A DNA stretch of 64,000 bases from Bacteroidota bacterium (GTDB lineage Bacteria; Bacteroidota; Bacteroidia; 2-12-FULL-35-15): positions 135,203 through 199,202 of the forward strand of contig CANNHN010000004.1 of assembly GCA_947504725.1 (NCBI GenBank). The letters are read 5' to 3'. Shown one piece after another: positions 5,343-26,392 of the stretch. The stretch's first letter is position 1. Each line of letters starts with the position of its first letter. Under the pieces are notes generated by a model. The model had not been told where the DNA came from. It made no database searches and saw only the letters and a list, made by a program, of their open reading frames with translations. Both the position numbers and the translations under genes were made by a program.

Positions 5343-5343
5343 A

Positions 5344-6144: not shown

Positions 6145-6206
6145 AATTCAATTACTTTTGTAGAAGTCTTCAATTACAATTTGTGACGTTACTTTATTTA
6201 AACACG

Positions 6207-9234: not shown

Positions 9235-9318
9235 TTTGTTTGTTTTAGTTTGTTGTAATAATATGCGTGTTCGTAATAAAACTATGTTTTTGCTATAAAA
9301 TTGTATAAATGATTGTTT

Positions 9319-10275
9319 TTAGAATGAAGGACAGCTTACTGTTCTGAATTTTTTCTTCTTTGGCTTACATTCGAATTGCAATGAAAAAGAAATTTCATGA
9401 GAACCAGCTGTCGCGTTTGTTAACTTAGACACGGTTACGTCATAGCTGTATCCAACTTTAAAGAAATGTTGTTGGAAACCAATAAGAGCAATAAATGAAT
9501 CTTGGTTACGATACCAAAGTCCACCTACAATTGAACCTCTAACAACATAAACACCTAAGTTTAACTGTTGGAAATCTTGTTGTTTTTGATAGATCACGTT
9601 TGGAGAAATGTATGTTTCGTTTCCTTTGTCACCAACTGGCAATACTGCACCAGCATGTCCTGTGATTTTTAAAGGTAATTTGCTTGGTCCAATTAAGCCT
9701 TCATCAGGTTGCGTTAAATGGTGAGCTGCAAATCCGAAGAAATAACGTTTGCTAAAGCCTAGCATTCCTACTGATAAATCTACGTTTGATTTTTTTGATA
9801 CGCCCGGAACTTCATTCGTATTGTAAACAAAACCTCTGCGTTCGTCAATCATATCACCAAAAGTTAATTTGCTCCAGTCAATACTTTTTTGGAAGTATGT
9901 TCCCTGGAAACCAAATTTCATTGAAAATTCACGATTGATATTTAATTGGTAAGAATACATTGCAGAAACGTTGGTAGTCGTTAATGTTCCTTGTCCTGCT
10001 TTATCATTTGTAACTAAAAGTCCTAATCCACCAGCAATTTTATCGATATGTTGATCGTATGAAGCTGAATAAGTTATATAAGTACCAGAAATATTTGGCC
10101 ACTGATTACGATAATTTAAGTTAATTCTAGGGCATCTTGCCGTTCCAGCAAATGCAGGATTTAAATAAAGTGGATTTGCGTAGAATTGAGTAAAATGAGG
10201 GTCTTGAGCGAATAATTTTTCGCTAGATCCGAAAGAAAACACTACTAATAAAATTAAAACGATACGTTTTAACAT
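9319..10275 (-). CDS. Type IX secretion system membrane protein, PorP/SprF family
   Basis: After the signal peptide comes DPHFTQFYANPLYLNPAFAG, the signature N-terminus of PorP/SprF. I chose the ATG at 10275 over the TTG at 10302. Confidence 0.7.
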   Translation of the reverse strand: MLKRIVLILLVVFSFGSSEKLFAQDPHFTQFYANPLYLNPAFAGTARCPRINLNYRNQWPNISGTYITYSASYDQHIDKIAGGLGLLVTNDKAGQGTLTTTNVSAMYSYQLNINREFSMKFGFQGTYFQKSIDWSKLTFGDMIDERRGFVYNTNEVPGVSKKSNVDLSVGMLGFSKRYFFGFAAHHLTQPDEGLIGPSKLPLKITGHAGAVLPVGDKGNETYISPNVIYQKQQDFQQLNLGVYVVRGSIVGGLWYRNQDSFIALIGFQQHFFKVGYSYDVTVSKLTNATAGSHEISFSLQFECKPKKKKFRTVSCPSF

Positions 10276-10469
10276 AACATCTCTGATTTTAATGGGACAC
10301 AATTATACACAAAATATTCTAAGAATGTTACATTTGGAGAGCATTATTTTGCAGAATTAAACAATAAACCACTAAAAAAAGCGTTAACCAGAAGAACTTT
10401 TTAGAACTTTGTTTGTACAAACTTATACAAAAAAATGGATACAACCAACAATAAATCCTCATTTTTAGC

Positions 10470-10477
10470 TAAATTTG
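10470..10477 (+). promoter_or_regulatory. Candidate Bacteroidota -7 promoter element (TAAATTTG, consensus TAnnTTTG) upstream of porU
   Basis: Motif match lying 21 bp upstream of the porU ATG. Confidence 0.3.
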
Positions 10478-10498
10478 AAATCTAATCAACCATATCGT

Positions 10499-13400
10499 AT
10501 GCGAATTATACTTGCCTTGTTGTTTATATTAGTTGTTGAAATTTCCGCATTTGGTCAAGCCAAATCTATTGGAAAACTAATTCCAACTAAGTATGCTATT
10601 TCTTGGCAACAGCCTGGTTCTGTTAGGCCATCAGAAAATGAGACCCAACGATTTTTGAGCTTTTCGGGTGCTCAATATCAATTTGAAGATGCTTTTTTGC
10701 CTCGTTATTTCGAAAAAATACCACTTACAAACAATGATTTAAGCTTCGAAACAACTATTATTAACCCTCTTTTTGAAGCTCTTTCTGATGTTGAAACTGC
10801 TATAATTAAAGATCCAGCACTTATTTCTACTGAAATAGTGGTAAAATCGGTTGTTTCCATTGCAAAAAAGCAAAAATATGGTACGGTTTCTTTTATTCCT
10901 ATTCGAAAAAATAGATCTACTGGGAAACTTGAAAAACTGGTTGCTTTTGATCTTTCTGTAGTTCCTAATTCATCAAGAGTGCCAGCTCGTGCTGTTCATA
11001 CTTACGCTGCTAATTCTGTTCTTCAAAATGGTGATTGGTATAAAATAGGGTTGGCTCAAGATGGTGTGTATAAATTATCATTTTCTTTTCTTCAAAGCTT
11101 AGGAATAGATGTATCTACGTTAAATCCTCAAAATATTCGTATTTATGGGAACGGAGGCGGCATGCTTCCTGAATTAAATTCAACTCCTAGAAAGGATGAT
11201 TTGGTTGAAAATGCCATTTTTGTGCAAGGTGAAGGGGATGGCATTTTTGATGCAACAGATTATGTTTTGTTTTATGGAAAAGGACCTCAGAATTGGAATT
11301 ACAATGCAAGTGCTTGTCCGAAATTTACTCATGAATTAAATCTTTATTCTGATTCTGCATATTATTTTATTAATGTTGATTTGGGTGCAGGTAAGCGAAT
11401 TTTAAATCAAGCTTCGTCCGTTTCTGCGGCAACGAATATCGTAAACACATTTGATGATTATAATTTTCATGAAACTAATAATGTGAATTTTATTAAGTCT
11501 GGTAGACAATGGTATGGTGAGTTTTTTGACAATATAGCAACATATAATTTTTCATTTAGTTTTCCAAACATAGACATGTCGGTACCAACAAGTGTTGCTG
11601 CTAGTATTGCTTCACGTTCTTTATCAACTGCCGCAAGTTATTCCATAACAAGTCAAACAGGAAGTACAAGTATTTCAATTGGAGCAACACCTGGCGATGC
11701 TTATAGTGATTATGCAATTATTGGAACAGGTTGTTTTTCCTTTAATCCGAATAACGCGAATGTTGGTGTTACAGTCACAAAATTAACTTCGAGTGCGCAA
11801 GCTTGGTTGGATTATATAACAGTGAATGTTAGACGACAGTTAACAATGTCGGGCGACCAAATGATTTTTAGAGATGTTCAATCTGTAGGCTTAGGAAATA
11901 TTGCTCAATACTCAGTTTCAAGTTTTTTGCCAATTCAAATATGGGATATTACAGAACCAACAAGTGTTTTTGCTCAATCAACTTCCCCAATTGGTTCAAC
12001 TTATCAGTTTACACTTCCGTCCGATACTTTAAAACAATTTATTGCTCATACTGGATTAAGTTATTTAACTGCAAAATTTTCCGAAAAAGTTTCGAATCAA
12101 AATTTGCATGCACTTTCTGATAAAGACTACATTATTATTTCTCATCCTGATTTTTATTCTGATGCTATTCAGTTAGCTACATTTCACGAAAACACTGATT
12201 CGCTTTCATCGATAGTTATAACTCCTCAGCAGATTTACAATGAATTTTCTTCTGGAGCTCAGGATATTAGTGCGCTAAGAGATTTTGTAAAGATGTTTTA
12301 CGATAAAGCTGCTATCGCGTCTGAATTGCCGCAATATTTATTGCTTTATGGCGATGGATCTTATGACAATAGAAGGAGATCAAGTAGCAATACGAATTTT
12401 ATTCCTACATACCAATCCTTTAATTCAACAGTTCTTACTCAGTCATATGTTTCAGATGATTTTTATGGGTTGTTAGATGATTCTGAAGGAACATGGGCTG
12501 GAAGTGCAGATGCTATTGATATTGGGATTGGTCGTTTGTCTGTAAAAAACACTGCTGAGTCAAATGCTGTTTTAAGTAAAATATTTAATTATACAAAAAC
12601 GGGTTTAGTGCCAAATACATCCAATAATGGTTGTTCAAATAATGTATCCAATACTCCGTTTGGCGATTGGAGAAATACTGTTTGTTTTATTGGTGATGAT
12701 GAAGATGGCGGCTTGCACCAATCTGATGCAAATAAATTAGCGACTATGGTAGACACTGCAGCAGACGATTACAATGTAGATAAAATTTATTTAGACGCCT
12801 ATCCACAAGAATCTACACCAGGAGGAAATCGTTATCCCACTGTAGCTGAAGCAATAAACAAAAGGATTGAGAAAGGTTGTTTGATTTTGAATTACACTGG
12901 GCACGGTGGAGAAGTTGGTTTGGCACACGAAAGAGTTATAGATGTTTCTCAAATTAATAATTGGAAAAACTTTAATAATCTACCCTTGCTTTTTACTGCT
13001 ACTTGTGAGTTTAGCAGATTTGATGATCCAGAAAGAACATCAGCTGGTGAGTATGCTCTTATAAATCCTGAAGGTGGAGCAATTGCTCTATTCACAACTG
13101 TTCGATTGGTATTTGCTTCAGGAAATTTTTATTTGAATCGTGATTTTTACGAACGAGCTTTTCTTCCAATTGCTGGTAAAATGCCACGGTTAGGTGATTT
13201 GTTTGCGTATATCAAAAACGAGCCCGGTGGGAATTCGGTAAACAGTAGAAATTTCACATTGCTTGGCGACCCAGCGTTGACATTGGCGTATCCAAAATTT
13301 GATGTCTCAACAGATACCGTAAATGCAATTCCAGTTTCTGTATCAAGTTCAGATACTTTGAAAGCGCTTTCATTGGTAACAATCAGTGGGTTTGTAAGAA

Positions 13401-14386
13401 ACACTAGTGGGTCGGTTATTAATACATACAACGGAGTTGTTTATCCGACAGTTTTTGATAAGTCTCAAAATATTACAACTCTTTCTAATGATGGAACTTT
13501 ATCAAGCCCTCCATTTACATTCGGAGTGCAAAAAAATATTTTATACAAAGGAAAAGCAAGTGTAACAAATGGAGCCTTCAAATTTTCTTTTGTTGTACCA
13601 AAAGATATTGCTTATGCCTTTGGAATAGGAAGAATAAGTTATTATGCAGAAAACGGAACAGAAGATGCAAATGGATATTATGAAAAAGTAATTATTGGTG
13701 GCTCAAATGATTCAGCTGCAATTGATAATGCAGGACCTAATGTTGATTTGTTTTTAAATGATGCAAAATTTGTTTATGGAGGATTAACGGATGAAACACC
13801 TGATTTGTTTGCAATTCTGAAGGATGATAATGGTGTAAATACTGTTGGAAATGGAATTGGACATGATATTACAGCAGTTCTTGATGGAAATACAGAAAGT
13901 TCGGTTGTATTAAACGATTATTATCAAGCCGATTTAAATAGTTATAAAAGCGGAACAATCCGTTACCCTTATTCTGAATTGAGTGAAGGGAAACATACTT
14001 TGAGTTTAAAAGTGTGGGATGTTTATAATAACTCGAGTCAATCGTATACTGAGTTTATTGTTGCCCGTTCTGCTGAATTAGCTTTGAGTCATGTATTGAA
14101 TTATCCAAATCCATTTACTACAAAAACTCAATTTTATTTTGAGCAAAATCAATGCTGTCAAGTATTGGATGTTTCTGTTCAGATCTTTACAGTTTCAGGT
14201 AAATTGGTAAAAAGTATTGACCAGTTTGTACAAACAGAAGGTTTTCGTTCAGACCCGATTGATTGGGATGGCCGAGATGATTTTGGAGATAGAATTGGAA
14301 AAGGTGTTTATATTTATAGAATAAAAGTGAAGACAAGTGAAGGGGCAGTAGCCGAAAAATTCGAAAAGCTTGTTATTTTAAATTAA
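10499..14386 (+). CDS. porU: T9SS C-terminal signal peptidase PorU (peptidase C25/gingipain-like)
   Basis: Approximately 1295 aa with a signal peptide. A gingipain-like His/Cys dyad is visible (NYTGHGGEVG ... LFTATCEFSRFDD). It has a Por-type C-terminal domain and is followed by porV. I chose the ATG at 10499 over the TTG at 10475. Confidence 0.75.
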   Translation: MRIILALLFILVVEISAFGQAKSIGKLIPTKYAISWQQPGSVRPSENETQRFLSFSGAQYQFEDAFLPRYFEKIPLTNNDLSFETTIINPLFEALSDVETAIIKDPALISTEIVVKSVVSIAKKQKYGTVSFIPIRKNRSTGKLEKLVAFDLSVVPNSSRVPARAVHTYAANSVLQNGDWYKIGLAQDGVYKLSFSFLQSLGIDVSTLNPQNIRIYGNGGGMLPELNSTPRKDDLVENAIFVQGEGDGIFDATDYVLFYGKGPQNWNYNASACPKFTHELNLYSDSAYYFINVDLGAGKRILNQASSVSAATNIVNTFDDYNFHETNNVNFIKSGRQWYGEFFDNIATYNFSFSFPNIDMSVPTSVAASIASRSLSTAASYSITSQTGSTSISIGATPGDAYSDYAIIGTGCFSFNPNNANVGVTVTKLTSSAQAWLDYITVNVRRQLTMSGDQMIFRDVQSVGLGNIAQYSVSSFLPIQIWDITEPTSVFAQSTSPIGSTYQFTLPSDTLKQFIAHTGLSYLTAKFSEKVSNQNLHALSDKDYIIISHPDFYSDAIQLATFHENTDSLSSIVITPQQIYNEFSSGAQDISALRDFVKMFYDKAAIASELPQYLLLYGDGSYDNRRRSSSNTNFIPTYQSFNSTVLTQSYVSDDFYGLLDDSEGTWAGSADAIDIGIGRLSVKNTAESNAVLSKIFNYTKTGLVPNTSNNGCSNNVSNTPFGDWRNTVCFIGDDEDGGLHQSDANKLATMVDTAADDYNVDKIYLDAYPQESTPGGNRYPTVAEAINKRIEKGCLILNYTGHGGEVGLAHERVIDVSQINNWKNFNNLPLLFTATCEFSRFDDPERTSAGEYALINPEGGAIALFTTVRLVFASGNFYLNRDFYERAFLPIAGKMPRLGDLFAYIKNEPGGNSVNSRNFTLLGDPALTLAYPKFDVSTDTVNAIPVSVSSSDTLKALSLVTISGFVRNTSGSVINTYNGVVYPTVFDKSQNITTLSNDGTLSSPPFTFGVQKNILYKGKASVTNGAFKFSFVVPKDIAYAFGIGRISYYAENGTEDANGYYEKVIIGGSNDSAAIDNAGPNVDLFLNDAKFVYGGLTDETPDLFAILKDDNGVNTVGNGIGHDITAVLDGNTESSVVLNDYYQADLNSYKSGTIRYPYSELSEGKHTLSLKVWDVYNNSSQSYTEFIVARSAELALSHVLNYPNPFTTKTQFYFEQNQCCQVLDVSVQIFTVSGKLVKSIDQFVQTEGFRSDPIDWDGRDDFGDRIGKGVYIYRIKVKTSEGAVAEKFEKLVILN

Positions 14387-14418
14387 TTTGTACATTAGCA
14401 ATCCTAAATAAAAATTGA

Positions 14419-15693
14419 ATGATAGATATTAGAGCATACAGCAAAAAAATATTTTTATTTGCTACCGCTATTATAGTTGTAGAGAGCGTTAAATCCCAAT
14501 CAAGTCAAAGTCAACGTGCTGAAGAACTTCAGTTAAATACGATAACTACAGCCGTTCCGTTTTTGCTTATTACACCCGACTCAAGAGCAGGTGGAATGGG
14601 AGATGCTGGCGTTGCGTCTTTAAACGATGTGAATGCTGTTCATTGGAATGCATCAAAATTAGGCTTTACAACAAAAAAAATGGGCTTTGGTGTTTCTTAT
14701 ACGCCATGGTTAAGAGCGTTGGTGCCAGATATTAATTTAGCATACATCACTGGTTTTTATAAGATGAAGAAGAAAGGAACTATTGCAGGTTCACTTCGTT
14801 ATTTTTCTTTAGGTGATATCACTTTCACAGATGCAAATGGGCAAACTACTGGACAATTTCGTCCAAATGAATTTGCACTTGATGTAGCTTATGGAACAAA
14901 GTTGGCAGATAATTTTGCAGTTGGTTTAGCGGTTCGATACATCAACTCAAATTTAACTGGAAATGCACTTGTTCAAAGTTCACAAACTCGTCCAGGTCGT
15001 GCAGTTGGCGTTGATCTTTCTGCATTATACAAAAAAGAGAAAGTGAAACTTGCAGATAAAAAAGCAATTGTTGCTTTTGGAATTAATATTTCAAATATTG
15101 GAAATAAAATGTCATACTCAGATAGAGGTGATAAAAATAGCGATGATTTTATTCCAATTAATTTGCGTTTAGGTGGATCGTTAAATGTGAATTTGGATGA
15201 TTATAATTCAATTTCAGTTTTAGCAGATATCAATAAATTATTAGTTCCAACTCCTCCCACTTATAAATTTAAAGTTGATGCAAATGGAGTAACTACAGGA
15301 GAAATAGACGTAGATGCGGATGGGAATCCAATAATTGAAAAAGGAAAAGATCCTAACCGCGGAGTAGCAGAAGGAATGTTTGGTTCGTTTACGGATGCTC
15401 CAGGTGGTGGAAAGGAAGAGTTAAGAGAACTTAACTATTCGCTTGGTTTGGAATATTGGTACAATCATTTGTTTGCTGTTCGTGCAGGATATTTTTATGA
15501 GCATCCAACAAAAGGGAATCGTCAATTTTTTACAATTGGTGCGGGAGTTAAGTACAATGTTTTTGGGTTAGATTTTGCATATTTGATTCCAACTCAACAA
15601 CGTAATCCTTTAGAAAACACATTGCGTTTTACTCTTACATTTGACTTTGATGCATTCAAAGATCAAAACAAAGAAGAAGCAAAAACAGAATAA
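14419..15693 (+). CDS. porV: T9SS outer-membrane shuttle protein PorV (LptO), FadL-like beta-barrel
   Basis: 424-aa signal-peptide OMP immediately downstream of porU, which is the conserved synteny. It shows the alternating beta-strand pattern of a barrel. Confidence 0.65.
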   Translation: MIDIRAYSKKIFLFATAIIVVESVKSQSSQSQRAEELQLNTITTAVPFLLITPDSRAGGMGDAGVASLNDVNAVHWNASKLGFTTKKMGFGVSYTPWLRALVPDINLAYITGFYKMKKKGTIAGSLRYFSLGDITFTDANGQTTGQFRPNEFALDVAYGTKLADNFAVGLAVRYINSNLTGNALVQSSQTRPGRAVGVDLSALYKKEKVKLADKKAIVAFGINISNIGNKMSYSDRGDKNSDDFIPINLRLGGSLNVNLDDYNSISVLADINKLLVPTPPTYKFKVDANGVTTGEIDVDADGNPIIEKGKDPNRGVAEGMFGSFTDAPGGGKEELRELNYSLGLEYWYNHLFAVRAGYFYEHPTKGNRQFFTIGAGVKYNVFGLDFAYLIPTQQRNPLENTLRFTLTFDFDAFKDQNKEEAKTE

Positions 15694-16324: not shown

Positions 16325-17011
16325 TTATAGTGAGATGGTATATTCTAATCCTAGGATATATAAATTTTGTGGAGCGGAAAGATTCCATTCTCTTTGTATT
16401 AAATAATAAACCCCAAAAGTGTTTCTTTCGCTTTTTTTGTAATCTAATCCGACAATGTATCTGCCTCGATGCCATAAGTTATTTACGTCAACTGAACGCG
16501 GATTGTTGATTTGGTATCGTAATTCGCAAGCAATATAGGGTTTTACAGGTTTGTCTAAATCGTATTTTATAGTTAACTTACTTCTGGTGTACCATTCAGG
16601 AATTGCTCCTAATTCACTTGAGTAAATATTTCTGTATTCTCCTTGAAGTCTTTGACGGAAGGCGAAGGAAAGTTGGCCAGCTTTTTTCTTTAAAAGAACA
16701 TCCAACATTACTCGGTGACGAAAACTAATAGCATCGTCCTCAATGAATTTTTCGATGCAACGATAAGACAATGAAATTTTCATGAAATCAGTAGGCTTAA
16801 ATGAAGCTCCTAAATCCGTATAAAATAAATTGCTTTGCGAATAATTTTCTCTCACACGATATTCTTCTGTAATAAACAAGCTGAATTTTTGATTTAATGC
16901 TTTCTCTACATTAAAAGTGCACCATAAACCAGCGTCATCATTGGCTTGTGCGAATGATTTGGACGTTAAGCCAATGGCGATTATAAAAAGCAGTGCAATT
17001 TTCTTTATCAT
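16325..17011 (-). CDS. DUF2490-like outer-membrane beta-barrel protein
   Basis: Signal peptide (..SFAQA) and a barrel-like alternating pattern, 228 aa. Last gene of the co-directional cluster. Confidence 0.45.
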   Translation of the reverse strand: MIKKIALLFIIAIGLTSKSFAQANDDAGLWCTFNVEKALNQKFSLFITEEYRVRENYSQSNLFYTDLGASFKPTDFMKISLSYRCIEKFIEDDAISFRHRVMLDVLLKKKAGQLSFAFRQRLQGEYRNIYSSELGAIPEWYTRSKLTIKYDLDKPVKPYIACELRYQINNPRSVDVNNLWHRGRYIVGLDYKKSERNTFGVYYLIQREWNLSAPQNLYILGLEYTISL

Positions 17012-17017
17012 AAAAAA

Positions 17018-17644
17018 TTATTTTGTTACGTTGTAATAAACACGAATTAATGCTGTGTCCTTCAGGAAATCAATTTTCCCAATGGAAATACGATTAATTT
17101 TGATACCCATTCTGTTTTCGAGATCGGCTAACAACTCTGCTCGTAGTTCGGGTTTAATCATCTCAATGTTTTCGTATTGAATGTTTTGAGAAATCTCCTT
17201 TTTCATAAAAACTGAAGTTTCCAAGGCAAAAGTGAAAATGATAATAATAAGGTTGATGAATGAAATCTCAATCCAGTTTCCTTTGCTTAGTGCTGTAATT
17301 AAGCCCATGGCAATTACTAAAAAGAGATAAGTCATGTCTTTTGTAGAGATGCCTTCCGTTCTATAGCGAAGCATAGAAAAAACAGCAAATAAACCAAATG
17401 CAGCCCCCATGCTCATGTCCGATTTGTTCAAAATGAACGTGATTAAAAATATAATAAGGTTGAAAATAAAGAGTGTGAAAAAATTTTCACGGTTTTTATA
17501 GACAGGGAAATAGATAAATCGAATTAGAATAAATACAGAAACTAGATTGATTGCTAATCGAATAAAAAACTTTTGACCCAGTTTTTCAAAAAGTGTAAAT
17601 CCTGTATTAACAGCTTCTTCAGTTAACTCTTGTAGTAGTACCAT
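17018..17644 (-). CDS. DUF4956-like polytopic inner-membrane protein
   Basis: 208 aa with about 4-6 TM helices. Its start overlaps the VTC gene stop by 26 bp. Confidence 0.45.
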   Translation of the reverse strand: MVLLQELTEEAVNTGFTLFEKLGQKFFIRLAINLVSVFILIRFIYFPVYKNRENFFTLFIFNLIIFLITFILNKSDMSMGAAFGLFAVFSMLRYRTEGISTKDMTYLFLVIAMGLITALSKGNWIEISFINLIIIIFTFALETSVFMKKEISQNIQYENIEMIKPELRAELLADLENRMGIKINRISIGKIDFLKDTALIRVYYNVTK

Positions 17645-18386
17645 ACAATGCTTTTTTTATTAAAATTAATTTAGGTTTAAAATTATTGTGCTTAATCTTT
17701 TCATATAAATTTATAATTCCGAAACAATATTTACTTATTGCACCTTGTCGGATATGATATTTTTTCATTAATTTCAAAAAAGGAGAAGGAACTGCTTTGT
17801 CTTGCTTTACTTCGGCAATTACAATTTTTTCAATCGTTTTATTTTGATCTTCGTTCTTAAAAGTTAAATTCAAATCGATCGTTACTCTTTCGGGTGAATG
17901 TTTGTTTACAAACGTAATTCTAGAATAATTCACCCAAATTTTAGCCTCTAAATTGTCTGATTTTAAGGGAGTTTTATGTGTTAAAAGTTCTTCCGCTTTT
18001 TCTTTTATTGAACCATCAATTTCTTTTTGCTTTACTCTGTCTTTTATTGTCCGTCCTTTGTTTGTTTTAAACTTTACTTCAAAAAAATTCAAATCAGATT
18101 CAACATATTTTCTGAATCGTACTTTAAATCTGCTTGGTTTTCCCCTGTGATGTGAATGATATAAATCAAACCCTTTTGTGTCAAAATATAACGACTCGTA
18201 TCTACTTATTTTGTTGCCATTTACATCTAGTATTTTGTAATCGTTTTTTATCTGATTTAATAATTCAGGTAAAAGCTCAAACTTAAAAACAAATTTAGTG
18301 TCAGTTCTATCCATCAACTTCACACTGTCCATTTCTTTTAAAGTAATGGGCTCAAATTCATTCAATATGCGATTTACTTCGTCCAC
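17619..18386 (-). CDS. VTC-domain protein (polyphosphate polymerase / CYTH-like triphosphate-tunnel domain)
   Basis: Soluble 255-aa protein, or 237 aa if the ATG at 18332 is used instead of the GTG at 18386. It has charged beta-strand motifs typical of the VTC/CYTH tunnel (..YFDT.....Y..H..G...R.K.R.R.Y..). The family assignment is from recollection. Confidence 0.55.
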   Translation of the reverse strand: MDEVNRILNEFEPITLKEMDSVKLMDRTDTKFVFKFELLPELLNQIKNDYKILDVNGNKISRYESLYFDTKGFDLYHSHHRGKPSRFKVRFRKYVESDLNFFEVKFKTNKGRTIKDRVKQKEIDGSIKEKAEELLTHKTPLKSDNLEAKIWVNYSRITFVNKHSPERVTIDLNLTFKNEDQNKTIEKIVIAEVKQDKAVPSPFLKLMKKYHIRQGAISKYCFGIINLYEKIKHNNFKPKLILIKKALYGTTTRVN

Positions 18387-18388
18387 GT

Positions 18389-18958
18389 TTAGTATTCGTA
18401 TGTATACTTCTTTATAGAAATGACCGTACCGTTTCCATCGGTTGTTTTCTTCTCAGTTTTTAAACCATTTTTATCATAAGCATAAATTGATTTTTTTATC
18501 ATTTTACCTTTTTCGTCCATCGTTATTTCGTAAGATCTATCACCTTTTGCATTGTATCCATGTTGCGTTTTTTCTAGAAGTTTCCCGTTCGCATCAGATG
18601 TAGTTTCAAATGTTTTGTCTTTGTTGGAATTGTACTCAGTCGTTATCTTTTTCTTCAAATTTCCTTTTTCATCAAAAATAAGTTCTTCTGTAATATCATT
18701 ATTTTTGTTGTAGGTCTGAGCTTCTTTTTTCTTGATAGAACCATCTTTGTTGTACTCAATTAGTTCTATAACATTCCCGTTTTTGTCAAATTTTTGAGAC
18801 ATGTCTGTCCGTGTTTTTTCTTTTCCTTCAATTGATTCTGTTACAACAGTAACACTTGATTTTATACCGAGTTTTTTTACTTCTTTTTTGCTTTGTGAAA
18901 ATGAAGTAAGTGTAAGTATAGAAAAGATGAATGAAAGGAATATTAACTGAGTTTTCAT
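18389..18958 (-). CDS. Secreted repeat protein (approximately 22-aa repeats Y.KNG....E...D.NG; MORN/YwqK-like?)
   Basis: Signal peptide followed by internally repetitive Lys/Asn-rich repeats. I chose the ATG at 18958 over the one at 18997 to avoid overlap. Confidence 0.45.
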   Translation of the reverse strand: MKTQLIFLSFIFSILTLTSFSQSKKEVKKLGIKSSVTVVTESIEGKEKTRTDMSQKFDKNGNVIELIEYNKDGSIKKKEAQTYNKNNDITEELIFDEKGNLKKKITTEYNSNKDKTFETTSDANGKLLEKTQHGYNAKGDRSYEITMDEKGKMIKKSIYAYDKNGLKTEKKTTDGNGTVISIKKYTYEY

Positions 18959-18969
18959 TTTATATTTAT

Positions 18970-19386
18970 TTATTTTACGATTTCGATTGTTTCGCATTCA
19001 ACCGTTTGTTTTTTCTTTGTGATCTCAACATCTTTAATAACGGCCAGCCTGTTAACAGTTGTTAAGGATGTACCACTTGAATAAGAATATATCGTATAGT
19101 TGCCAGCGCGCAAGTATTTAAATTCATAAATTCCATCAAAATTTGCTTGTACCTTATCGCCATAAGTAGCATCATCACCGTAAATGATGTAGACATCTTC
19201 ATAGGCACCAGCAAATTCTCCTCCTAGTGAAGCAGGGATTGCTATGCCAAGGTCGTTGTATCTTTTTACCCAAATTTTTCCAGTAATTGTTGCCTTTCCT
19301 CCTTCACCTTCTGATTTTTTACATGAAGAAATTGATAAGAGACTTACTGATATAAGTGATAGAATAATTATTTTGAATATTTTCAT
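18970..19386 (-). CDS. Small lipoprotein, tandem paralog 1
   Basis: 138 aa with lipobox ..SSCKK. Paralogous to the adjacent 141-aa gene (shared GKIWV..YN.LG, GEFAGA.EDVYIIYGDD..YG.KV, DGIFEFKYLR.G.Y). Confidence 0.5.
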   Translation of the reverse strand: MKIFKIIILSLISVSLLSISSCKKSEGEGGKATITGKIWVKRYNDLGIAIPASLGGEFAGAYEDVYIIYGDDATYGDKVQANFDGIYEFKYLRAGNYTIYSYSSGTSLTTVNRLAVIKDVEITKKKQTVECETIEIVK

Positions 19387-19405: not shown

Positions 19406-19831
19406 TTATTTATAAATAGTTAGAGTGCCTGCGTCAACGGTTTCTTTTTTGTTAGCTATGTTTACTGAAACATCTACTGTTTTTATTCCTGAGCCATAAA
19501 AATAGGACGCACGTGTAGTGTCTTTAGACTTTACATAAACTTTGTAATCGCCTTTTCGTAAATATTTAAATTCAAAAATCCCATCAGGTCCTGATTTTAC
19601 TTTGTTACCATAGCTTATATCGTCACCATAAATGATATAAACATCTTCATCTGCTCCTGCAAATTCACCTTTTAAAAAATAGGGAGGACTAGATATACTT
19701 CCTAATGTGTTGTAGTTTTCAACCCATATTTTTCCTTGAATAGTTGCTTGTCCGCCTTCTCCTTCTGGTTTGTTGCACGATGCAATTATCAGTGCTACAG
19801 TAACAGCTAATAATAAGATTTTTTTACTCAT
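19406..19831 (-). CDS. Small lipoprotein, tandem paralog 2
   Basis: 141 aa with lipobox ..ASCNK. About 50% identical to paralog 1. Confidence 0.5.
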   Translation of the reverse strand: MSKKILLLAVTVALIIASCNKPEGEGGQATIQGKIWVENYNTLGSISSPPYFLKGEFAGADEDVYIIYGDDISYGNKVKSGPDGIFEFKYLRKGDYKVYVKSKDTTRASYFYGSGIKTVDVSVNIANKKETVDAGTLTIYK

Positions 19832-19935: not shown

Positions 19936-22900
19936 TTAGAGTGTTTTTGTTTTAATTAGTTTAATTGTTTTTGTAAATTCTTTTGTTTTTAATTCAATAA
20001 AGTACATTCCAGACGCCATAGCCAATCCTTTTGTGTCAAAATTAAACGAATAACTTCCCTCTGCATGAAAAGTATCAGGAGAGACAATGGTTGCTACATC
20101 TTGACCAATTATTGAATACAATTTTACGCTTACTTGCATACTTTCTGGCAACTGAAAATTGATAGTAATTAAATCGTTGAAAGGATTTGGATATACATCT
20201 AAGCCCAGTTCAAGAACATCAAAATGTGCTCTGAAAACATCATTTGTATCGATGTTTAAAGTGATACTTTCGAGTTCAGTTTTTAAAATAGTACTATTTG
20301 CTTCCCAATATTTGAACTCGTATCCAGGATTTGCAATGGCTGTGATGGATACAGGAACACCATCAAAGTAGACGCCTGTCCACGGTAGCGACTCAGGAGT
20401 AATGGTGCTGATTTTAATTTTACCAGCTCCAGCAGGCATTACATCTAATGTCACATCCACTTGTTTTGTTAATCCAAATTGACTTTGTATCTGGTCGCGT
20501 GCAAATCCAATTCTATTTGTCGCAAATAGCATCATGGTGTCAATTTCACTTTCCCATTCAGTTACATTTGAAGAAGGACCAATTAAACCACTCCAAAAAC
20601 TTCCTCCCCAGCGAGTAAAATGTCTTGGCATTTCTGGTAACATTTCATCATGCATTGCATCTGCATTTTGTTGCATAGTGCTTGGTAAAAAAATGGTGTT
20701 CATTAAATCAGCATATCGATCAACAAAATAATTTTTAAATTCTGAATTTGCTAAAAGCCCAGACAACATTGTTGAATGGGGATTTACTGTAACGGGGTTA
20801 ATAGCGATATCTAAAAAGTCGGTGCTTACTGCTCCGCCCCAAGCAGTAGCAAATCCAAGTGATAAGTCGGTATCCCATAAAACATAACGCCATTTTCCAA
20901 CTGGATTATTTGGTCGCCAAAATTTGATATTGTTGGTGTAACTTCCAAGCCAATCGATATTTAATATATACGTTTCCGTTATAAAATAGTCGCAAAAATT
21001 TTCTACATCCAACAGACTTTTTGCTGTATTGTAATTTGCAGCAATAGACATATCGTTTGAGCCAATCCAATTTGACATGCTCAAAAATGCGGTATTACTT
21101 CCTTCAATTATACTTCCATCAAATTGTAAAAAATCAATTTTGTCGGCAGGAATACCGCTGTTGTTTTCTATATAATCTTTGTCTTGTTTTTCACGTAATT
21201 CATAAACGCCCCAATAATCACCGTTGATGAAAAGCACACATGGTCTGCCGTCCATAATTTCAAGACTCGTACTTTTTTGAGCATTTTTTTGATTGAAACG
21301 GTCACGCATATGCGCTTTGTTCCAATCTGAACCAGCATTTCGAATGTTGAATGATTTGTATTGCGTGACAAATGGTTTGTCCGGAAACAAAGGGTAATCA
21401 ATCGTTTCGCCTTTGTAGTTTTCTTTTGTTTTTACAGCAAATCCTCTTTGTGGCCAAGCTTTTGAATAATTTCCTTGGATAGCGATAGAAGATGGAGTTT
21501 CAAATCCTAAATTTCCATTTGGGTCGAAATACTCTATGTTCGCAGGTCGTTCCCAGCCTTGCCAAAAATTCGCACCTTGAAAAGGAACATTTACTGTATC
21601 AGCATTTGGGCCCATTACATAAATTCCATAATTGTAATCAAACAAATTATAAGGATCGCTGGTTAAGGAAACAACAGGTAGTTCAATGTTTTCGTTTATG
21701 AAATAAGTATTGGTAATAATTTCGCTTGGCAATTGTAATGGGTCCGTTGAATACGTACGTGCTCTTACAGCCATAGTGGAATCAATAGTAATTGGAGTTA
21801 AGTACAATGCAGATGTTTGATCGGGATCTTTTCCATCAAGTGTATATCTTACCAATCCTGTTGGGGAAGACATACTTAATGTTTGTGTTGAAGAATAAAA
21901 TCCAGCACTTAAAGAAAAAGAAGGTTTACTTAGATAATCAGTGTAGAATGCGGAAGTGTTATTCGTTGTATCTGGAGTTGGAGAATCAAAATAATACCAA
22001 CTGCTAGCTCCATTAGGTCTTCTACCAAATGTGTTATTCAATTGCATTCCTCCAATTATTTTTTGGTCAACGATATTTCCTGAAGCATCTTTTAAAATTA
22101 GTTCTTGTCCAGTGCTATTTAAATTAAAGCTGGTATGTAAATTAACAATAGCTGCAAACGGATAATACGTAACTGCGGTATCGTTTACTCCAATTAAAAA
22201 ATAGGGGATCATAGAAAGATCGTCCGTTCCACTAGAGAAATTGTGTACCTGAACACTAAATACATTTAATCCTGGTTTGATAGCGGCATCAACAACTTCG
22301 GGTGAAACAAAATAAGCTCCTGAAAAATTTCCAGTTGAATAAACACTAGCTTCATGCTCATCATAAGCCCAAGTATTAAAGTTTGGTCGGTCACCATAAA
22401 CGCCAACATTCGCACGAGCTATTTCAACACCATTTAAATAAGCAACAAAGCCATCATCATAATCTAAAAACAATAAAGCTGTTGGGATCTTACTAGTATC
22501 AGCAATATTAAAACTAGTTCGCATAAAAACTGAAGTTATTGGAGGAGTGATAGTGCTATCATCTCCATCGCCATAACCAATTCCTCCAATTCCTGTTAAC
22601 CAAGATGCATCGTTAAAAGTTATATCAGGCCAAGTAGCTGGCGGGTTTGTTGTTCCTAAAAAATATTTCCATGGAAGCTGAGGATAAACAGGTACTTCCC
22701 AATGGTCGAAGTATGCATTTCGGTTTTTCTTAGAACAAAAAACGGTTAAGTAATCGTTTGCTTTTATATTTATGCTTGGAAAAGTCCAAGATTTACTTTT
22801 TCCATTTTCGATAGAAGAGATAGTATATCCACTCATATTGATTGGTGAAGCTGTAGGATTATAAAATTCAATCCAATCTTCTTGGTCGTTATCTTCATCT

Positions 22901-23019
22901 AAATAACTAGAAACACTCGCGTTGGAAACTTCATTAATGACAATTTGTGCATTTGACTGCAATGCACATGCAAAAATTAAAGAGAAAATACAGTAGAGTA
23001 GGCGTATATTAATGCACAT
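19936..23019 (-). CDS. CotH kinase-family protein with N-terminal lamin-tail domain and T9SS C-terminal sorting domain
   Basis: 1027 aa. An LTD-like N-terminus (VINEVS..DWIEFYNPT..MSGYTI) is followed by a CotH core (..FINGDYWGVYELREKQDKDYIE..). The last approximately 80 aa (VYPNPFNDLITINF...GMYFIELKT) match a T9SS CTD. Confidence 0.65.
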   Translation of the reverse strand: MCINIRLLYCIFSLIFACALQSNAQIVINEVSNASVSSYLDEDNDQEDWIEFYNPTASPINMSGYTISSIENGKSKSWTFPSINIKANDYLTVFCSKKNRNAYFDHWEVPVYPQLPWKYFLGTTNPPATWPDITFNDASWLTGIGGIGYGDGDDSTITPPITSVFMRTSFNIADTSKIPTALLFLDYDDGFVAYLNGVEIARANVGVYGDRPNFNTWAYDEHEASVYSTGNFSGAYFVSPEVVDAAIKPGLNVFSVQVHNFSSGTDDLSMIPYFLIGVNDTAVTYYPFAAIVNLHTSFNLNSTGQELILKDASGNIVDQKIIGGMQLNNTFGRRPNGASSWYYFDSPTPDTTNNTSAFYTDYLSKPSFSLSAGFYSSTQTLSMSSPTGLVRYTLDGKDPDQTSALYLTPITIDSTMAVRARTYSTDPLQLPSEIITNTYFINENIELPVVSLTSDPYNLFDYNYGIYVMGPNADTVNVPFQGANFWQGWERPANIEYFDPNGNLGFETPSSIAIQGNYSKAWPQRGFAVKTKENYKGETIDYPLFPDKPFVTQYKSFNIRNAGSDWNKAHMRDRFNQKNAQKSTSLEIMDGRPCVLFINGDYWGVYELREKQDKDYIENNSGIPADKIDFLQFDGSIIEGSNTAFLSMSNWIGSNDMSIAANYNTAKSLLDVENFCDYFITETYILNIDWLGSYTNNIKFWRPNNPVGKWRYVLWDTDLSLGFATAWGGAVSTDFLDIAINPVTVNPHSTMLSGLLANSEFKNYFVDRYADLMNTIFLPSTMQQNADAMHDEMLPEMPRHFTRWGGSFWSGLIGPSSNVTEWESEIDTMMLFATNRIGFARDQIQSQFGLTKQVDVTLDVMPAGAGKIKISTITPESLPWTGVYFDGVPVSITAIANPGYEFKYWEANSTILKTELESITLNIDTNDVFRAHFDVLELGLDVYPNPFNDLITINFQLPESMQVSVKLYSIIGQDVATIVSPDTFHAEGSYSFNFDTKGLAMASGMYFIELKTKEFTKTIKLIKTKTL

Positions 23020-23155: not shown

Positions 23156-23851
23156 TTATTTTTTAAAAATGGCATTAAAATCTGCTTCATAACTGCTTCC
23201 AATAGGAATTTCTTTCCCTGCAATCGAAATCATTTTTTTTCTAACGTTTTCTATTTTACTAAATGGAATAATAAATGAGCGATGCACACGAATGAATTCT
23301 GTGGAAGATAATTTTTCCATAATGCCTTTCATGGTCATTCGTGTTACTATTGGTTTTGGGTTATTTAAAAGATGAATTTTTAAATAATCATCCAATCCTT
23401 CAATTAAAGCGATATCATTTATGGCAATTTTAATCAGACTATAATCTGCTCTCACGAATAAATATTGTTCCATGTTTTTTTCTAAAGTTCCAGCAGAACC
23501 AAAATTATCTTTTGCTTTATTTACTGCTTGTAAAAAACGTTCATAGGTATAGGGTTTTAGTAAATAATCAATGGCGTTTAAATTAAATCCTTCCACAGCA
23601 AATTCGCTATAAGCAGTTGTGAAAATAACCATTGTGTTTTGTTCAATCGATTTGTAAAGTTCAATGCCTGACATGGAAGGCATATTGATGTCCAAAAACA
23701 ACAAGTCGGTTGGGAATTTACTAAGATGTTTCAATGCTTCATTCGGCATTGAAAATGTTTTTTGTAGTTCAATTAATCCAGTTTTCTCACAAAAATTTTC
23801 AATAATTTTCAATGCTGGTAATTCATCGTCAATGGCAATTGCTTTTATCAT
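23156..23851 (-). CDS. LytTR-family two-component response regulator
   Basis: Receiver domain (..LFLDINMP..) plus a C-terminal LytTR DNA-binding domain. 231 aa. Confidence 0.8.
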   Translation of the reverse strand: MIKAIAIDDELPALKIIENFCEKTGLIELQKTFSMPNEALKHLSKFPTDLLFLDINMPSMSGIELYKSIEQNTMVIFTTAYSEFAVEGFNLNAIDYLLKPYTYERFLQAVNKAKDNFGSAGTLEKNMEQYLFVRADYSLIKIAINDIALIEGLDDYLKIHLLNNPKPIVTRMTMKGIMEKLSSTEFIRVHRSFIIPFSKIENVRKKMISIAGKEIPIGSSYEADFNAIFKK

Positions 23852-24849
23852 TTAAGGTCTATTGTTAGTGAAACTGAATATTCTTTTTCAGTATTGTTAA
23901 TTTGTAATTTGTGTTTTCCGGGATAAATCATTTGCAATCTGTTTTTTGTATTTTGTACTCCAACACCACTTTCGGATTCTGCACTGCGTTGAACAAAAAC
24001 TTTATTGTTTTTTACAAATAAAAATAATTGATTTTCCGTTGTGTCAATCTTAATATTAATTATTGAATTGTCTTCAGCATTTACACCATGTTTGTAAGCA
24101 TTTTCAATAAATGGAATAAGTATTAATGGTGCAATTGTTTTGTTTTTATGGTCTCCAGTAATGGTGCATTCAAATTGGATAAAACTTCCAAAACGAATTT
24201 GTTGTAATTCAATAAAGTTCTGAATGTATTCAATTTCTTTTTCTAAACTAACATAATCACTTGAACTTTCGCTTAAAACATAACGCATCATGTTTGACAA
24301 TTTAACAATTGAAGAAGCGACATTGTCGGATTGGACAATTGCCAAGGAGTAGATGCTGTTTAATGTGTTAAATAGAAAGTGAGGGTTGATTTGAGCTTTT
24401 AAATAAGCCAATTCGGCATCAAGTTTTTCTTTTTCAGATTGTTTCAAGCGAACGTTAATTTTAAGCATCAGTGAGAAAACTAAAACAATTAAAAATAAAA
24501 AGAGACGAATTTTAATTTCTCGTATAAAAAATGTATCAAAAGTATTTGAATTAAAATTAGTAGAAGGGATGAGTACAAGTGGTAAAAAGAAGATTAGTGC
24601 AAAATAGAAAAACACTACAAAGTAAAAAATGTAATATTTTTTTTCAAAATATAGTCTTGGAATTAAAACGAAATAACTTAAATAAAAAAAAGGAATCAAA
24701 ATAATTGAAAATAGTAAATCGCGCTGAAACCCTTTGGCGTGAATAAAATCAAAATCAAGAGAAAGGTCAGGCGAAAAAATAATAGGAAGTGCTAAGAAAA
24801 TAGCGCAGCCTAATAAGTGAATGACAAGTTGATTGGTTTTTTTATTCAT
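23848..24849 (-). CDS. LytS/YehU-type sensor histidine kinase (membrane)
   Basis: N-terminal TM helices and the His_kinase motif LKAQINPHFLFNTLNSI. It overlaps the RR gene start by 4 bp. Confidence 0.75.
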   Translation of the reverse strand: MNKKTNQLVIHLLGCAIFLALPIIFSPDLSLDFDFIHAKGFQRDLLFSIILIPFFYLSYFVLIPRLYFEKKYYIFYFVVFFYFALIFFLPLVLIPSTNFNSNTFDTFFIREIKIRLFLFLIVLVFSLMLKINVRLKQSEKEKLDAELAYLKAQINPHFLFNTLNSIYSLAIVQSDNVASSIVKLSNMMRYVLSESSSDYVSLEKEIEYIQNFIELQQIRFGSFIQFECTITGDHKNKTIAPLILIPFIENAYKHGVNAEDNSIINIKIDTTENQLFLFVKNNKVFVQRSAESESGVGVQNTKNRLQMIYPGKHKLQINNTEKEYSVSLTIDLK

Positions 24850-24892: not shown

Positions 24893-26392
24893 CTACTTTA
24901 TTTTTTGAAATTTTGAATACCCGTTCTCATTCACTTTGATCAAATACATTCCGGAAGGAAATTCTGAAATATCAATCTTTTCGGAAGTATTCTGAGATGT
25001 TAGTTTTGAAATTTCTTGTCCTAATGAATTGTAAATTCGAATTGCATTTTCAGTTTGAGTTAAATTGAAGTTAATTGTGATAAAGTCGTTCGCAGGATTT
25101 GGATAAACTATGAATGGATTGTTTTCCGAACTATTTTCATTTACTCCAACATAACAACCATTTAAAAATAATTCTGCTATCAATGCATTTCTGCGGTCGG
25201 TAATAAATGTTTTTATTCCCATTATCATTCCTACGTCTGATGTTAAATTTGTTTCGAAGTCTGCACTCGAATAAAATTTTATGCCATCGGCATAAACATC
25301 CGTACGGATTGCATTTGCTAATGAATCAATTTTTGAATCCAATGCAGCATTACTAAAATCGTATTGAAGCCATTGACAAAATACATCCGTTAATGTGCTT
25401 TTGTAAGATGGTACAGCAAGCATTTTTTGAACTAATGGTCGGTTTGTTGAAGGTGTAGAAACGTGATAAGCGCTTAAGTTTTTAAGCTGTGTGTTCGTTA
25501 ATCCCATATTGAAATTCCCAAAAGATTCATTGACATCCCAACTCACCCATTCAAATTTATTTGCAAGTGTATCGTGATAAATAAAATAATTGTGACCACT
25601 TCCAATATATGAATCCAGATTGACAAATAAATTCATGGCTGCCCAATGTCTAATGAAACTACTAGTGTTTAAAGCCACTTCCAAAGAGTCTTGAAAATTG
25701 CTTGCGCTATTATTAATGTTGTCAATTAAGTCGACTAAATCGGTCCAATCATTTGCTGTTTCATTTGTATGCAATTCGTATTTTGCATAATAGGAAGATG
25801 CGGCAGTACCATACCATCTTAAATCTCCAGATGGATCACCTTTAAACATGTTCCCTTGTTTGTTTCCAAAACGATCATCTAGAAAAGTTTTGTTTGCTTC
25901 TTCAACAAACATGTATAATCCCCAATAAATTCCATTTAAGTAGACACGAGTGTATGAGCATCGTGGAGCCGCTAATCCATGTTCATTATAAAAATCTAAC
26001 GCCAATTTTTCACGCATAAAAGACGGGTCTTTAAAACCGTTATTCAAATTGAATTTTTTTATTCCATCAAGTTCACTAGTTGATCCATATTCATTTAAAT
26101 CTATTTTAAATGGTTTTTTTGTACTTGGGTTAGAGTAAGAAGAATTTCCTTTAAACTTTATTCCCACGTTTGGATAAATCACACCGTCTATAGTTACATC
26201 TCCTTTTAAATATAAATCCAATGGTTTATTTGCCACGAGAGAATCCCAGTAATTGGTTTGTGGAAATGTCATATATATATCATGAACAATAGCTTGTCCG
26301 AAAAAAATATCGCCTTCTGTTTGAGCTTTGGTTTTAGATGAGAGTAAAGAAATTGAGATTAAAAAAAGTGGGAGTAGCTTTTTTAGTTTCAT
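24893..26392 (-). CDS. CotH kinase-family protein with T9SS C-terminal sorting domain
   Basis: 499 aa with a signal peptide. The CotH core aligns by eye to B. subtilis CotH (HDIYMTF.., GIKFKGNSS..KKPFKIDLN, KKFNLNNGFKDPSFMREKLALDFY, YLNGIYWGLYMFVEEANKTFL). A T9SS CTD is present (VYPNPANDFITINF..). Confidence 0.7.
   Translation of the reverse strand: MKLKKLLPLFLISISLLSSKTKAQTEGDIFFGQAIVHDIYMTFPQTNYWDSLVANKPLDLYLKGDVTIDGVIYPNVGIKFKGNSSYSNPSTKKPFKIDLNEYGSTSELDGIKKFNLNNGFKDPSFMREKLALDFYNEHGLAAPRCSYTRVYLNGIYWGLYMFVEEANKTFLDDRFGNKQGNMFKGDPSGDLRWYGTAASSYYAKYELHTNETANDWTDLVDLIDNINNSASNFQDSLEVALNTSSFIRHWAAMNLFVNLDSYIGSGHNYFIYHDTLANKFEWVSWDVNESFGNFNMGLTNTQLKNLSAYHVSTPSTNRPLVQKMLAVPSYKSTLTDVFCQWLQYDFSNAALDSKIDSLANAIRTDVYADGIKFYSSADFETNLTSDVGMIMGIKTFITDRRNALIAELFLNGCYVGVNENSSENNPFIVYPNPANDFITINFNLTQTENAIRIYNSLGQEISKLTSQNTSEKIDISEFPSGMYLIKVNENGYSKFQKIK

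Follow-up and report, generated by a model that had tools for sequence, protein, structure and literature searches.

Gene layout of the locus

The window analysed here is a stretch of 64,000 nucleotides (nt) from contig CANNHN010000004.1 of a Bacteroidota bacterium (GenBank assembly GCA_947504725.1). Our subject is a pair of overlapping genes within it, one encoding a VTC-domain protein that is a candidate polyphosphate (polyP) polymerase and the other an inner-membrane protein of the DUF4956 family. Together with the DUF2490 gene that follows them, they form the tail of a larger same-strand block of ten genes, which runs over ~10 kb from 26392 to 16325 (Table 1); the DUF2490 gene converges with ispF across a gap of 11 nt. 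An earlier note, made by reading the letters of the window, had proposed that the three genes encode a split, envelope-spanning analogue of the yeast VTC complex, composed of a soluble tunnel enzyme, a separate membrane subunit and an outer-membrane porin. The layout on which this proposal was built is exact to the nucleotide: the VTC open reading frame (ORF) overlaps the DUF4956 ORF by 26 nt on the minus strand, and the DUF2490 gene lies 6 nt past the DUF4956 ORF (spacer 17012-17017).

Table 1. Features of the Bacteroidota block, in order of position in the window
Feature	Position	Strand	Description
DUF2490 predicted outer-membrane beta-barrel	16325..17011	-	228 residues; N-terminal signal peptide; last gene of the block
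DUF4956 inner-membrane protein	17018..17644	-	208 residues; ATG start; acidic N-terminus
VTC/DUF4956 overlap	17619..17644	-	26 nt; DUF4956 in the +1 frame relative to VTC
VTC-domain protein	17619..18386	-	255 residues; GTG start; no signal peptide; net charge +17; candidate polyP polymerase
p202, exported Lys-rich repeat protein	18389..18997	-	202 residues; ends 2 nt before the VTC start
Predicted lipoprotein	18970..19386	-	138 residues; lipobox ..SISSC; tandem paralogue of the 141-residue protein
Predicted lipoprotein	19406..19831	-	141 residues; lipobox ..IIASC; tandem paralogue of the 138-residue protein
CotH-1, secreted CotH-family kinase homologue	19936..23019	-	1027 residues; signal peptide, lamin-tail, CotH and type IX secretion system (T9SS) sorting domains
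LytTR-type two-component system	23156..24849	-	histidine kinase 23848-24849, response regulator 23156-23851
Second CotH-family kinase homologue	24893..26392	-	499 residues; T9SS sorting domain

The Pfam models for VTC and DUF4956, which the earlier note had suggested searching with, both scored clearly above their curated thresholds. The VTC protein matched PF09359 over model positions 2-233 of 235 (E=1.4e-31; 110.4 bits against a cutoff of 23) and had no CYTH match in Pfam, while the membrane protein matched PF16316 over the full model, positions 1-169 of 169 (E=2.1e-51; 174.4 bits against a cutoff of 30.6). The third protein was assigned to DUF2490 (PF10677, E=1.1e-21; 77.9 bits against a cutoff of 29.8). 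No NCBIfam model was found for any of the three. The DUF2490 protein begins with MIKKIALLFIIAIGLTSKSFAQA, which reads as a Sec signal peptide, and its profile returned marginal PDB matches to the porins OmpG and Omp36 and to OmpA (E 0.15-2). A preprint presents the members of this family as outer-membrane barrels that carry Sec signal peptides (bioRxiv 10.64898/2026.07.29.741452).

Gene overlaps are common in compact bacterial genomes, and a longest-ORF rule can exaggerate them. The adjacency and the 26-nt overlap could accordingly be incidental, or an artefact of ORF calling, with the three genes unrelated in function. Conservation at the protein level speaks against this on both sides of the overlap. 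The DUF4956 N-terminus that lies inside it (M1, L3, L4, Q5) is invariant or nearly so among homologues, and so are VTC residues 7-18, which lie upstream of the alternative start Met19. Because both termini are conserved as protein, the overlap is real and does not stem from ORF calling. It implies, at the level of gene arrangement, that the VTC and DUF4956 genes are co-transcribed, and they are probably translationally coupled as well. A programmed +1 frameshift in the overlap, which would give a fused, Vtc4-like protein, was considered and rejected, as the sequence contains no slippery or stop-hungry site.

Fold and tunnel residues of the VTC-domain protein

Relatives of the VTC protein run into the thousands: at 90% identity, the candidates examined fall into 3884 clusters, and many of these proteins are named 'polyphosphate polymerase domain-containing protein' by the NCBI pipeline. 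The AlphaFold2 model of the window protein (pLDDT 78, pTM 0.76) has eight or more long antiparallel strands and C-terminal helices, with the final 26 residues (230-255) predicted to be disordered. The protein models as a triphosphate tunnel, the fold of the triphosphate tunnel metalloenzymes (TTMs). When the model was compared with the PDB using Foldseek, the best matches were the Vtc4 structures 8I6V, 3G3R and 3G3Q (E ~2e-11 to 5e-11, TMq 0.59-0.65), and the top 13 matches were all Vtc4, Vtc3 or Vtc2 (E 2e-11 to 9e-10, TMq 0.56-0.65). Vtc3 and Vtc2 came after Vtc4, followed by Escherichia coli YgiF at number 14 and then by small archaeal and plant TTM hydrolases. With its Pfam score and these fold matches, the 255-residue protein is what the earlier note took it for, a VTC-domain protein.

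A single-sequence phmmer search of the PDB with the VTC protein gave no matches, and mapping its residues onto the yeast proteins needed profiles, which aligned the N-terminal and middle parts only. The alignment to Vtc4 equates R27 with R196, K31 with K200, R90 with R264, R92 with R266 and K105 with K281, and the alignment to Vtc2 places Y154 and R156 on the YxR motif (Y359, R361). The basic tunnel residues whose presence the earlier note had made decisive are thus kept. Toward the C-terminus, a profile of the last 100 residues did not retrieve Vtc4 and returned only chance matches to Rpb8 and eIF1A. For this reason the counterparts of E192, S218 and K219 are proposed from the order and spacing of invariant motifs: R167 would correspond to R373, E192-x-K194 to E426-x-K428 and S218-K219 to S457-K458. 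The invariant S218-K219 motif starts a C-terminal helix 26 residues past E192 (31 in Vtc4), in a region with no residue-level alignment. All mapped tunnel residues are invariant in 33 family members down to 52% identity, including the archaeal ones.

In yeast Vtc4, the residues that contact triphosphate and Mn2+ are K200, R264, R266, K281, Y359, R361, E426, S457 and K458, and mutating K200, R264, R266, K281, Y359, R361, S457 or K458 lowers polyP in yeast. E426 chelates Mn2+ and was not mutated singly in that cryo-EM work; of the residues listed, K458 alone distinguishes active Vtc4 from the inactive Vtc2 and Vtc3, which have Ile or Leu there (bioRxiv 10.1101/2023.01.27.525886). A Vtc4 triple mutant, R264A/R266A/E426N, is catalytically impaired (PMC9911596).

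The first tunnel strand departs from this pattern. Throughout the bacterial and archaeal family it carries an invariant R-x-D-x-K motif, in which Asp29 stands between R27 and K31, whereas Vtc4 has Thr198 at that tunnel-facing position and the hydrolytic TTMs have Glu4 of their ExExK motif. Read as a whole, R-x-D-x-K beside R-x-T-x-K of Vtc4 and E-x-E-x-K of the hydrolases looks like a hybrid of polymerase and hydrolase signatures. The acidic patch of hydrolytic TTMs binds a second metal, and in Vtc4 basic residues take its place and guide the growing chain (PMC4641920). Because Asp29 is invariant, a second metal site and hydrolytic chemistry keep some probability. The protein could then be a tri- or polyphosphatase or a nucleotide-processing TTM that, for example, degrades or senses polyP or a triphosphate compound at the membrane, with DUF4956 taking part in phosphate handling.

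Asp29, as the position of a second-metal ligand, is the main argument for such an enzyme. Moreover, most TTM families are hydrolases, and the window protein shares with the CYTH-type members (YgiF, AtTTM3, archaeal TTMs) the tunnel fold and a centre of Arg, Lys and Glu, residues common to Vtc4 and the hydrolases; AtTTM3 has the same tunnel centre and yet is a tripolyphosphatase (PMC4641920). The phytase-like esterase gene that follows the pair in Aminobacter, described below, would also fit. Other features separate the protein from the hydrolases. It has RxDxK and not ExExK, and the remaining mappable positions of the patch are basic as in Vtc4, with R27 in place of Glu2, K194 in place of Glu171 and probably K105. 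Lys219 of the SK motif is invariant and, by motif order, would match Vtc4 Lys458, which is lost in Vtc2 and Vtc3, while its equivalent is dispensable in AtTTM3 (PMC4641920). Finally, the Pfam match is to VTC and not to CYTH, and Vtc4 outranks all hydrolases in the structural comparison.

Taken together, we consider it very probable that the VTC protein is an active TTM enzyme acting on a tri- or polyphosphate substrate. That it is a polyP polymerase is the somewhat favoured assignment on the strength of its residues, and a hydrolytic or other TTM activity appears improbable. Asp29 and the failure of the C-terminal profile to reach Vtc4 count against the polymerase, and no biochemical study of any prokaryotic VTC-domain protein was found in the searchable literature.

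Conservation of the VTC/DUF4956 pair

A scan of one genome per species yielded 80 related loci from different assemblies, mostly metagenome-assembled genomes of Bacteroidota plus three Methanoperedens assemblies, and their ORFs were searched with the window proteins. A VTC gene followed by DUF4956 on the same strand was found in 66 of the 80 loci; most of the others are truncated by the end of a contig or come from a paralogous locus with inverted layout. Among the 66, the overlap between the two genes measures 23 or 26 nt in 44 loci and 4 nt in 8 more. The neighbours recur to differing degrees: DUF2490 comes next after DUF4956 in 55 loci, p202 is encoded in 71 of 80, nearly always by the gene just upstream of VTC, most related loci have the ~140-residue lipoprotein, in one or two copies, upstream of p202, and a CotH gene is found further upstream of the module in 29 of 80. 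Within Bacteroidota, p202 is as tightly linked to the VTC gene as DUF4956 is.

The pair also occurs in distant lineages and in either gene order. Deinococcus has CotH, VTC and DUF4956 genes, of which the RefSeq-annotated VTC and DUF4956 genes share 1 nt, and an Enterococcus plasmid carries VTC then DUF4956 with an 11-nt overlap. The order is reversed, DUF4956 then VTC, in Streptomyces (4-nt overlap) and on plasmid pAA01 of the alphaproteobacterium Aminobacter aminovorans, where the two genes likewise overlap (locus L083, 7795-8721) and a phytase-like gene comes after. In the archaeal Methanoperedens loci (L051, L052, L065) the pair stands alone beside archaeal-looking genes. DUF2490 was found in none of the versions examined from these five lineages.

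The pairing thus recurs in at least six phylum-level lineages, in both orders and nearly always with an overlap, an arrangement far beyond chance. These synteny data effectively refute the notion of incidental adjacency between functionally unrelated genes, to which we accord almost no probability. The invariant unit is the VTC/DUF4956 pair; CotH is a frequent associate, and DUF2490 and the periplasmic proteins are a Bacteroidota elaboration. Because the two genes are adjacent and usually overlapping across phyla in either order, we regard them as encoding a two-subunit unit, and DUF4956 is, judging from gene order, likely to be the physical partner of the VTC protein.

Three further observations concern the spread and variation of the unit. 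The Methanoperedens VTC and DUF4956 proteins are 55-58% identical to the Bacteroidota proteins, and their genes have a MoaA-like radical SAM gene and regulators of archaeal type as neighbours, which suggests inter-domain transfer of the two-gene unit alone. The Aminobacter pair is followed by a gene for an 'esterase-like activity of phytase family protein' and preceded by genes for an S8 peptidase and an ECF sigma factor, an accessory set that again seems to point to phosphate chemistry. Lastly, six loci (L055, L056, L057, L060, L062 and L066, at ~8000-11700 in each) contain a second, divergent module, in which a VTC gene and a p138-p202-DUF4956-DUF2490 operon lie on opposite strands and converge. 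The DUF4956 protein of this module has ~268 residues and a signal-peptide-like N-terminal extension. In L055 the upstream gene encodes, in place of CotH, a 1184-residue T9SS protein with GSDH, PA14 and Ig domains.

The DUF4956 membrane protein

DUF4956 is likewise a large family, with 6689 clusters among the candidates and 1523 representatives at 50% identity. A moderate AlphaFold2 model of the window protein (pLDDT 73, pTM 0.53) has five predicted helices (26-142) and then a beta-alpha-beta-beta, ACT-like domain at 150-205. Conservation across 133 diverse members peaks at G80..FGLFAxF89..R93-Y-R95-T96..K102-(D/E)103-MTYLF, which corresponds to helix 3, a short basic loop (R93/R95/K102) and helix 4. 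The protein probably has its N-terminus outside and, after five helices, its C-terminus inside, because the acidic N-terminus and the existence of paralogues with a signal-like N-terminal extension both fit this topology. It follows that the RYRT..K loop and the ACT-like domain would lie in the cytoplasm, alongside the VTC enzyme.

Two proposed relationships of DUF4956 were examined and set aside. Homology to the yeast VTC channel was ruled out, since neither sequence nor fold similarity was detected. A sequence search of the PDB retrieved no VTC chain, its sole match being SecG (E=0.15), which we take as chance hydrophobic similarity. Any role of DUF4956 as a channel is thus proposed by analogy with yeast VTC and not by homology. 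A relationship to MgtC has been claimed for the Streptococcus intermedius homologue, described as an MgtC transmembrane domain with an intracellular ACT domain (PMC12345266). DUF4956 indeed resembles the MgtC/SapB proteins, such as E. coli YhiD, in combining a polytopic N-terminal membrane domain with a small cytoplasmic ACT-like domain. However, the window protein had no Pfam MgtC match at E<=10, while YhiD itself scores 134 bits for MgtC, and hhalign of the DUF4956 alignment against YhiD gave a probability of 0.1%, in what was a shallow test of one sequence against a low-diversity profile. The resemblance is therefore architectural at most.

Apparent fusions of DUF4956 to its neighbours were also rejected as physical fusions. 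Long proteins joining DUF4956 to DUF2490 (422-512 residues; P0249, P0324, P0331) or to CotH (671 residues; P0277) are probably merged or read-through gene calls that say no more than that the genes are adjacent, because the signal peptide or lipobox of the neighbouring gene's product is still present inside them and, for the three DUF2490 proteins, has its own Met in front. Were P0277 real, an extra hydrophobic segment would place CotH outside and the ACT-like domain inside. No VTC-DUF4956 fusion was present among the best 150 representatives.

The Bacteroidota block around the pair

Upstream of the VTC gene, the block encodes mainly exported proteins. The p202 protein contains 37 Lys (18%), with an isoelectric point of 9.6, a net charge of +14 and short repeats of the form 'Y.K.G....E'. 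It received only sub-threshold, MORN/RHS-like Pfam matches and no family name, and on its composition it is a candidate periplasmic polyanion-binding component. The two lipoprotein paralogues share the N-terminus 'C-x-K-x-E-G-E-G-G..I.GK(I/V)W' in a pairwise alignment and gave only weak carboxypeptidase-regulatory or Ig-like matches. CotH-1 matched CotH (E=5e-40), the lamin-tail domain LTD and Por_Secre_tail in Pfam, as well as TIGR04183. The second CotH protein matched CotH (E=5.8e-64) and Por_Secre_tail, and also the Bacillus cereus CotH structure 5JD9 (E=3e-21). Overall, export signals are present in five of the seven proteins encoded from CotH-1 through DUF2490, and the VTC enzyme is the sole soluble cytoplasmic protein among them.

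Between the two CotH genes lies the two-component gene pair, whose products matched His_kinase, Response_reg and LytTR in Pfam. Homologues occur in 15-20 related loci, and in one of them (L020) they stand directly upstream of the lipoprotein gene; this system may regulate the block. From the first lipoprotein gene through DUF2490, neighbouring genes overlap or are spaced by no more than 19 nt. No terminator-like hairpins were found between these six tightly packed genes, although this is a weak test. A scan of 16.0-26.8 kb for sigma-70 promoters and terminators gave counts equal to the shuffled expectation, with a consensus that does not apply to Bacteroidota.

Genes of the T9SS lie beyond ispF, at 7702-15693. 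They comprise a GldJ/PorK-like protein with an FGE-sulfatase fold (7702-9234, minus strand), PorP/SprF (9319-10302, minus strand), the C25 peptidase PorU (10475-14386, plus strand) and PorV (14419-15693, plus strand). PorU, PorV and IspF stay syntenic with the module in ~22 related loci, and both CotH proteins of the window carry T9SS sorting domains. A further secreted protein, of 619 residues, is encoded at 32635-34494 (minus strand); apart from a T9SS C-terminal sorting domain, no domain could be recognised in it. Two ORFs on opposite strands occupy nearly the same interval, 5328-6173 (minus strand, 281 residues) and 5344-6144 (plus strand, 266 residues), and probably no more than one of them is a gene. 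No pel, DUF4832, ppk or ppx gene was found in the part of the window that was annotated (6.3-34.5 kb); the other families there are cytidine deaminase, 2-oxoacid dehydrogenase E1/E2, an acyltransferase and an MFS transporter.

Relation to known systems

Compared with the yeast VTC complex (Vtc4/Vtc3/Vtc1; 7YTJ, 8I6V), the window pair shares the PF09359 domain, the TTM fold and a strongly basic enzyme. It also retains the triphosphate and Mn residue set of Vtc4, with the Lys458 equivalent assigned by motif order, and in both systems a genetic link joins the enzyme to a polytopic membrane protein. The two also differ in several respects. Vtc4 has an N-terminal SPX domain and a C-terminal three-helix membrane domain, whereas the window protein consists of the VTC domain only; its membrane partner, with five helices and an ACT-like domain, is not a three-helix DUF202/Vtc1-type subunit; and the target compartment would be the periplasm or the cell surface rather than the vacuole.

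The closest bacterial precedent is a group of accessory genes, cotH, 'poly-phosphate polymerase', DUF4956 and DUF4832, that directly adjoins the pel operons of Gram-positive bacteria (Whitfield et al. 2020, PMC7112168). In S. intermedius (SIR_1592-1594), deleting the DUF4956 or the CotH homologue lowers Pel levels and aggregation, for which no mechanism was offered, and the same 2025 study stated that the three-gene synteny is not found outside pel loci (PMC12345266). It does occur outside them, namely in this window, in related Bacteroidota loci and in Deinococcus. Like the pel accessory group, the window holds genes for a secreted CotH homologue, a VTC protein and DUF4956 together on one strand; unlike that group, it has no pelDEADAFG operon and no DUF4832 in its annotated part. 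The Bacteroidota form further differs from the Gram-positive one in adding the DUF2490 barrel, two lipoproteins, the basic periplasmic protein and T9SS sorting of CotH.

Fragments of the module have been recorded elsewhere. Bacteroides thetaiotaomicron BT3498-99 appears in a transcriptome table as a DUF4956/DUF2490 pair, and Clostridium perfringens NELoc-1 carries VTC-domain and CotH genes. The cotH/polyP-polymerase/DUF4956 module is thus already annotated in RefSeq and present in the literature, and what the window adds is a diderm variant and not a new kind of system. A 2025 review describes VTC as the eukaryotic-type polyP polymerase and PPK as the prokaryotic type (PMC12526157).

Proposed mechanism

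We infer the following sequence of steps. The cytoplasmic, Vtc4-type enzyme most likely polymerises polyP from ATP, and it would be made together with, and docked on, the DUF4956 inner-membrane protein, whose RYRT..K loop and ACT-like domain could receive the nascent chain, regulate the enzyme, or both. In Bacteroidota, the product would probably leave the cytoplasm through DUF4956, be handled in the periplasm by the basic p202 and the two lipoproteins, and exit across the outer membrane through the DUF2490 barrel. It might then act at the surface together with the T9SS-secreted CotH kinases, under control of the LytTR two-component system. As a whole, the view that the two proteins form a prokaryotic equivalent, in two subunits, of the eukaryotic VTC polyP synthase, with an envelope hand-over in Bacteroidota, seems to us evenly poised between right and wrong. 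Its later steps are more tentative: translocation of the product by DUF4956 is conceivable but no better than a working proposal, and a role of DUF2490 as the outer-membrane exit is doubtful.

An envelope destination is proposed because most products of the block carry export signals, p202 has a strong positive charge, the N-out/C-in topology of DUF4956 fits and its basic loop is conserved. An extracellular role gains support from the phenotype of the S. intermedius mutants, which is extracellular (PMC12345266).

Several results weigh against this proposal, most of them concerning DUF4956. Apart from the modest quality of its model, DUF4956 has no Pfam match other than its own even at E<=10, and Foldseek found nothing in the PDB at E<=0.001 and no match to the VTC transmembrane chains of 7YTJ and 8I6V. 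The ACT-like domain would be equally fitting in a regulator and in a channel. In addition, several lineages that keep the pair lack DUF2490 and CotH, which implies that the core unit does not require export.

These same results bear on a different division of labour, in which the VTC protein is a polyP polymerase and DUF4956 serves as its membrane anchor, as a ligand-sensing regulator or as both, but not as a conduit. The ACT-like domain would then take the role of the yeast SPX domain, polyP would be retained inside the cell, in the cytoplasm or at the membrane's inner face, and the neighbouring envelope genes would be co-regulated yet mechanistically separate. Consistent with this, the only fold matches of the C-terminal domain, all weak, are of ACT type (TyrA, aspartate kinase and the AHAS regulatory, or small, subunit), the S. 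intermedius homologue was described with an intracellular ACT domain (PMC12345266), DUF4956 is similar to no known channel, and Methanoperedens, Aminobacter and Streptomyces have the core pair without envelope partners. Against it, the most conserved part of DUF4956 is not the ACT-like domain but the stretch from transmembrane helix 3 through the loop to helix 4, with R93, R95 and K102, and five polytopic helices exceed what an anchor needs. Furthermore, the Bacteroidota pair lies, with no gaps, inside an operon that encodes exported proteins, and the Streptococcus mutants are affected outside the cell (PMC12345266). On balance, we hold a pure anchor or regulator to be rather unlikely.

The earlier proposal thus survives in part. 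A split enzyme with a separate membrane subunit is borne out by the conservation of the pair across phyla and in both orders, although DUF4956 is not a homologue of the VTC channel. The outer-membrane component fared less well: DUF2490 does not belong to the core and was absent outside Bacteroidota in the versions examined, so that an envelope-spanning analogue would be, at most, a Bacteroidota variant.

Implications

The most far-reaching form of the proposal is a trans-envelope polyP secretion machine, composed of a Vtc4-type polymerase, DUF4956 as a conduit unrelated to VTC1, a basic periplasmic carrier and a dedicated DUF2490 barrel. The surface CotH kinases would use the exported polyP as a phosphoryl donor in a compartment free of ATP, or would attach or organise it on surface polymers. 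We consider this full version quite unlikely. If true, it would make 'eukaryotic-type' polyP synthesis a widespread bacterial and archaeal pathway as well, and would explain the substrate of extracellular CotH kinases.

Short of that, a Vtc4-like enzyme with retained catalytic residues is found in thousands of bacterial and in some archaeal sequences, paired with a single membrane-protein family. If the enzyme is active, prokaryotes would have a second, membrane-coupled route to polyP, which might be an ancestral, split form of the VTC complex. The exported neighbours and secreted CotH kinases in Bacteroidota suggest that the product acts outside the cytoplasm. An extracytoplasmic product would bear on the role of CotH kinases and on biofilm matrix chemistry, given the homologues involved in Pel-dependent aggregation in Streptococcus. 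With only two to six genes, the system is a compact and widespread candidate route by which prokaryotes would make polyP in the manner of VTC and might also export it.

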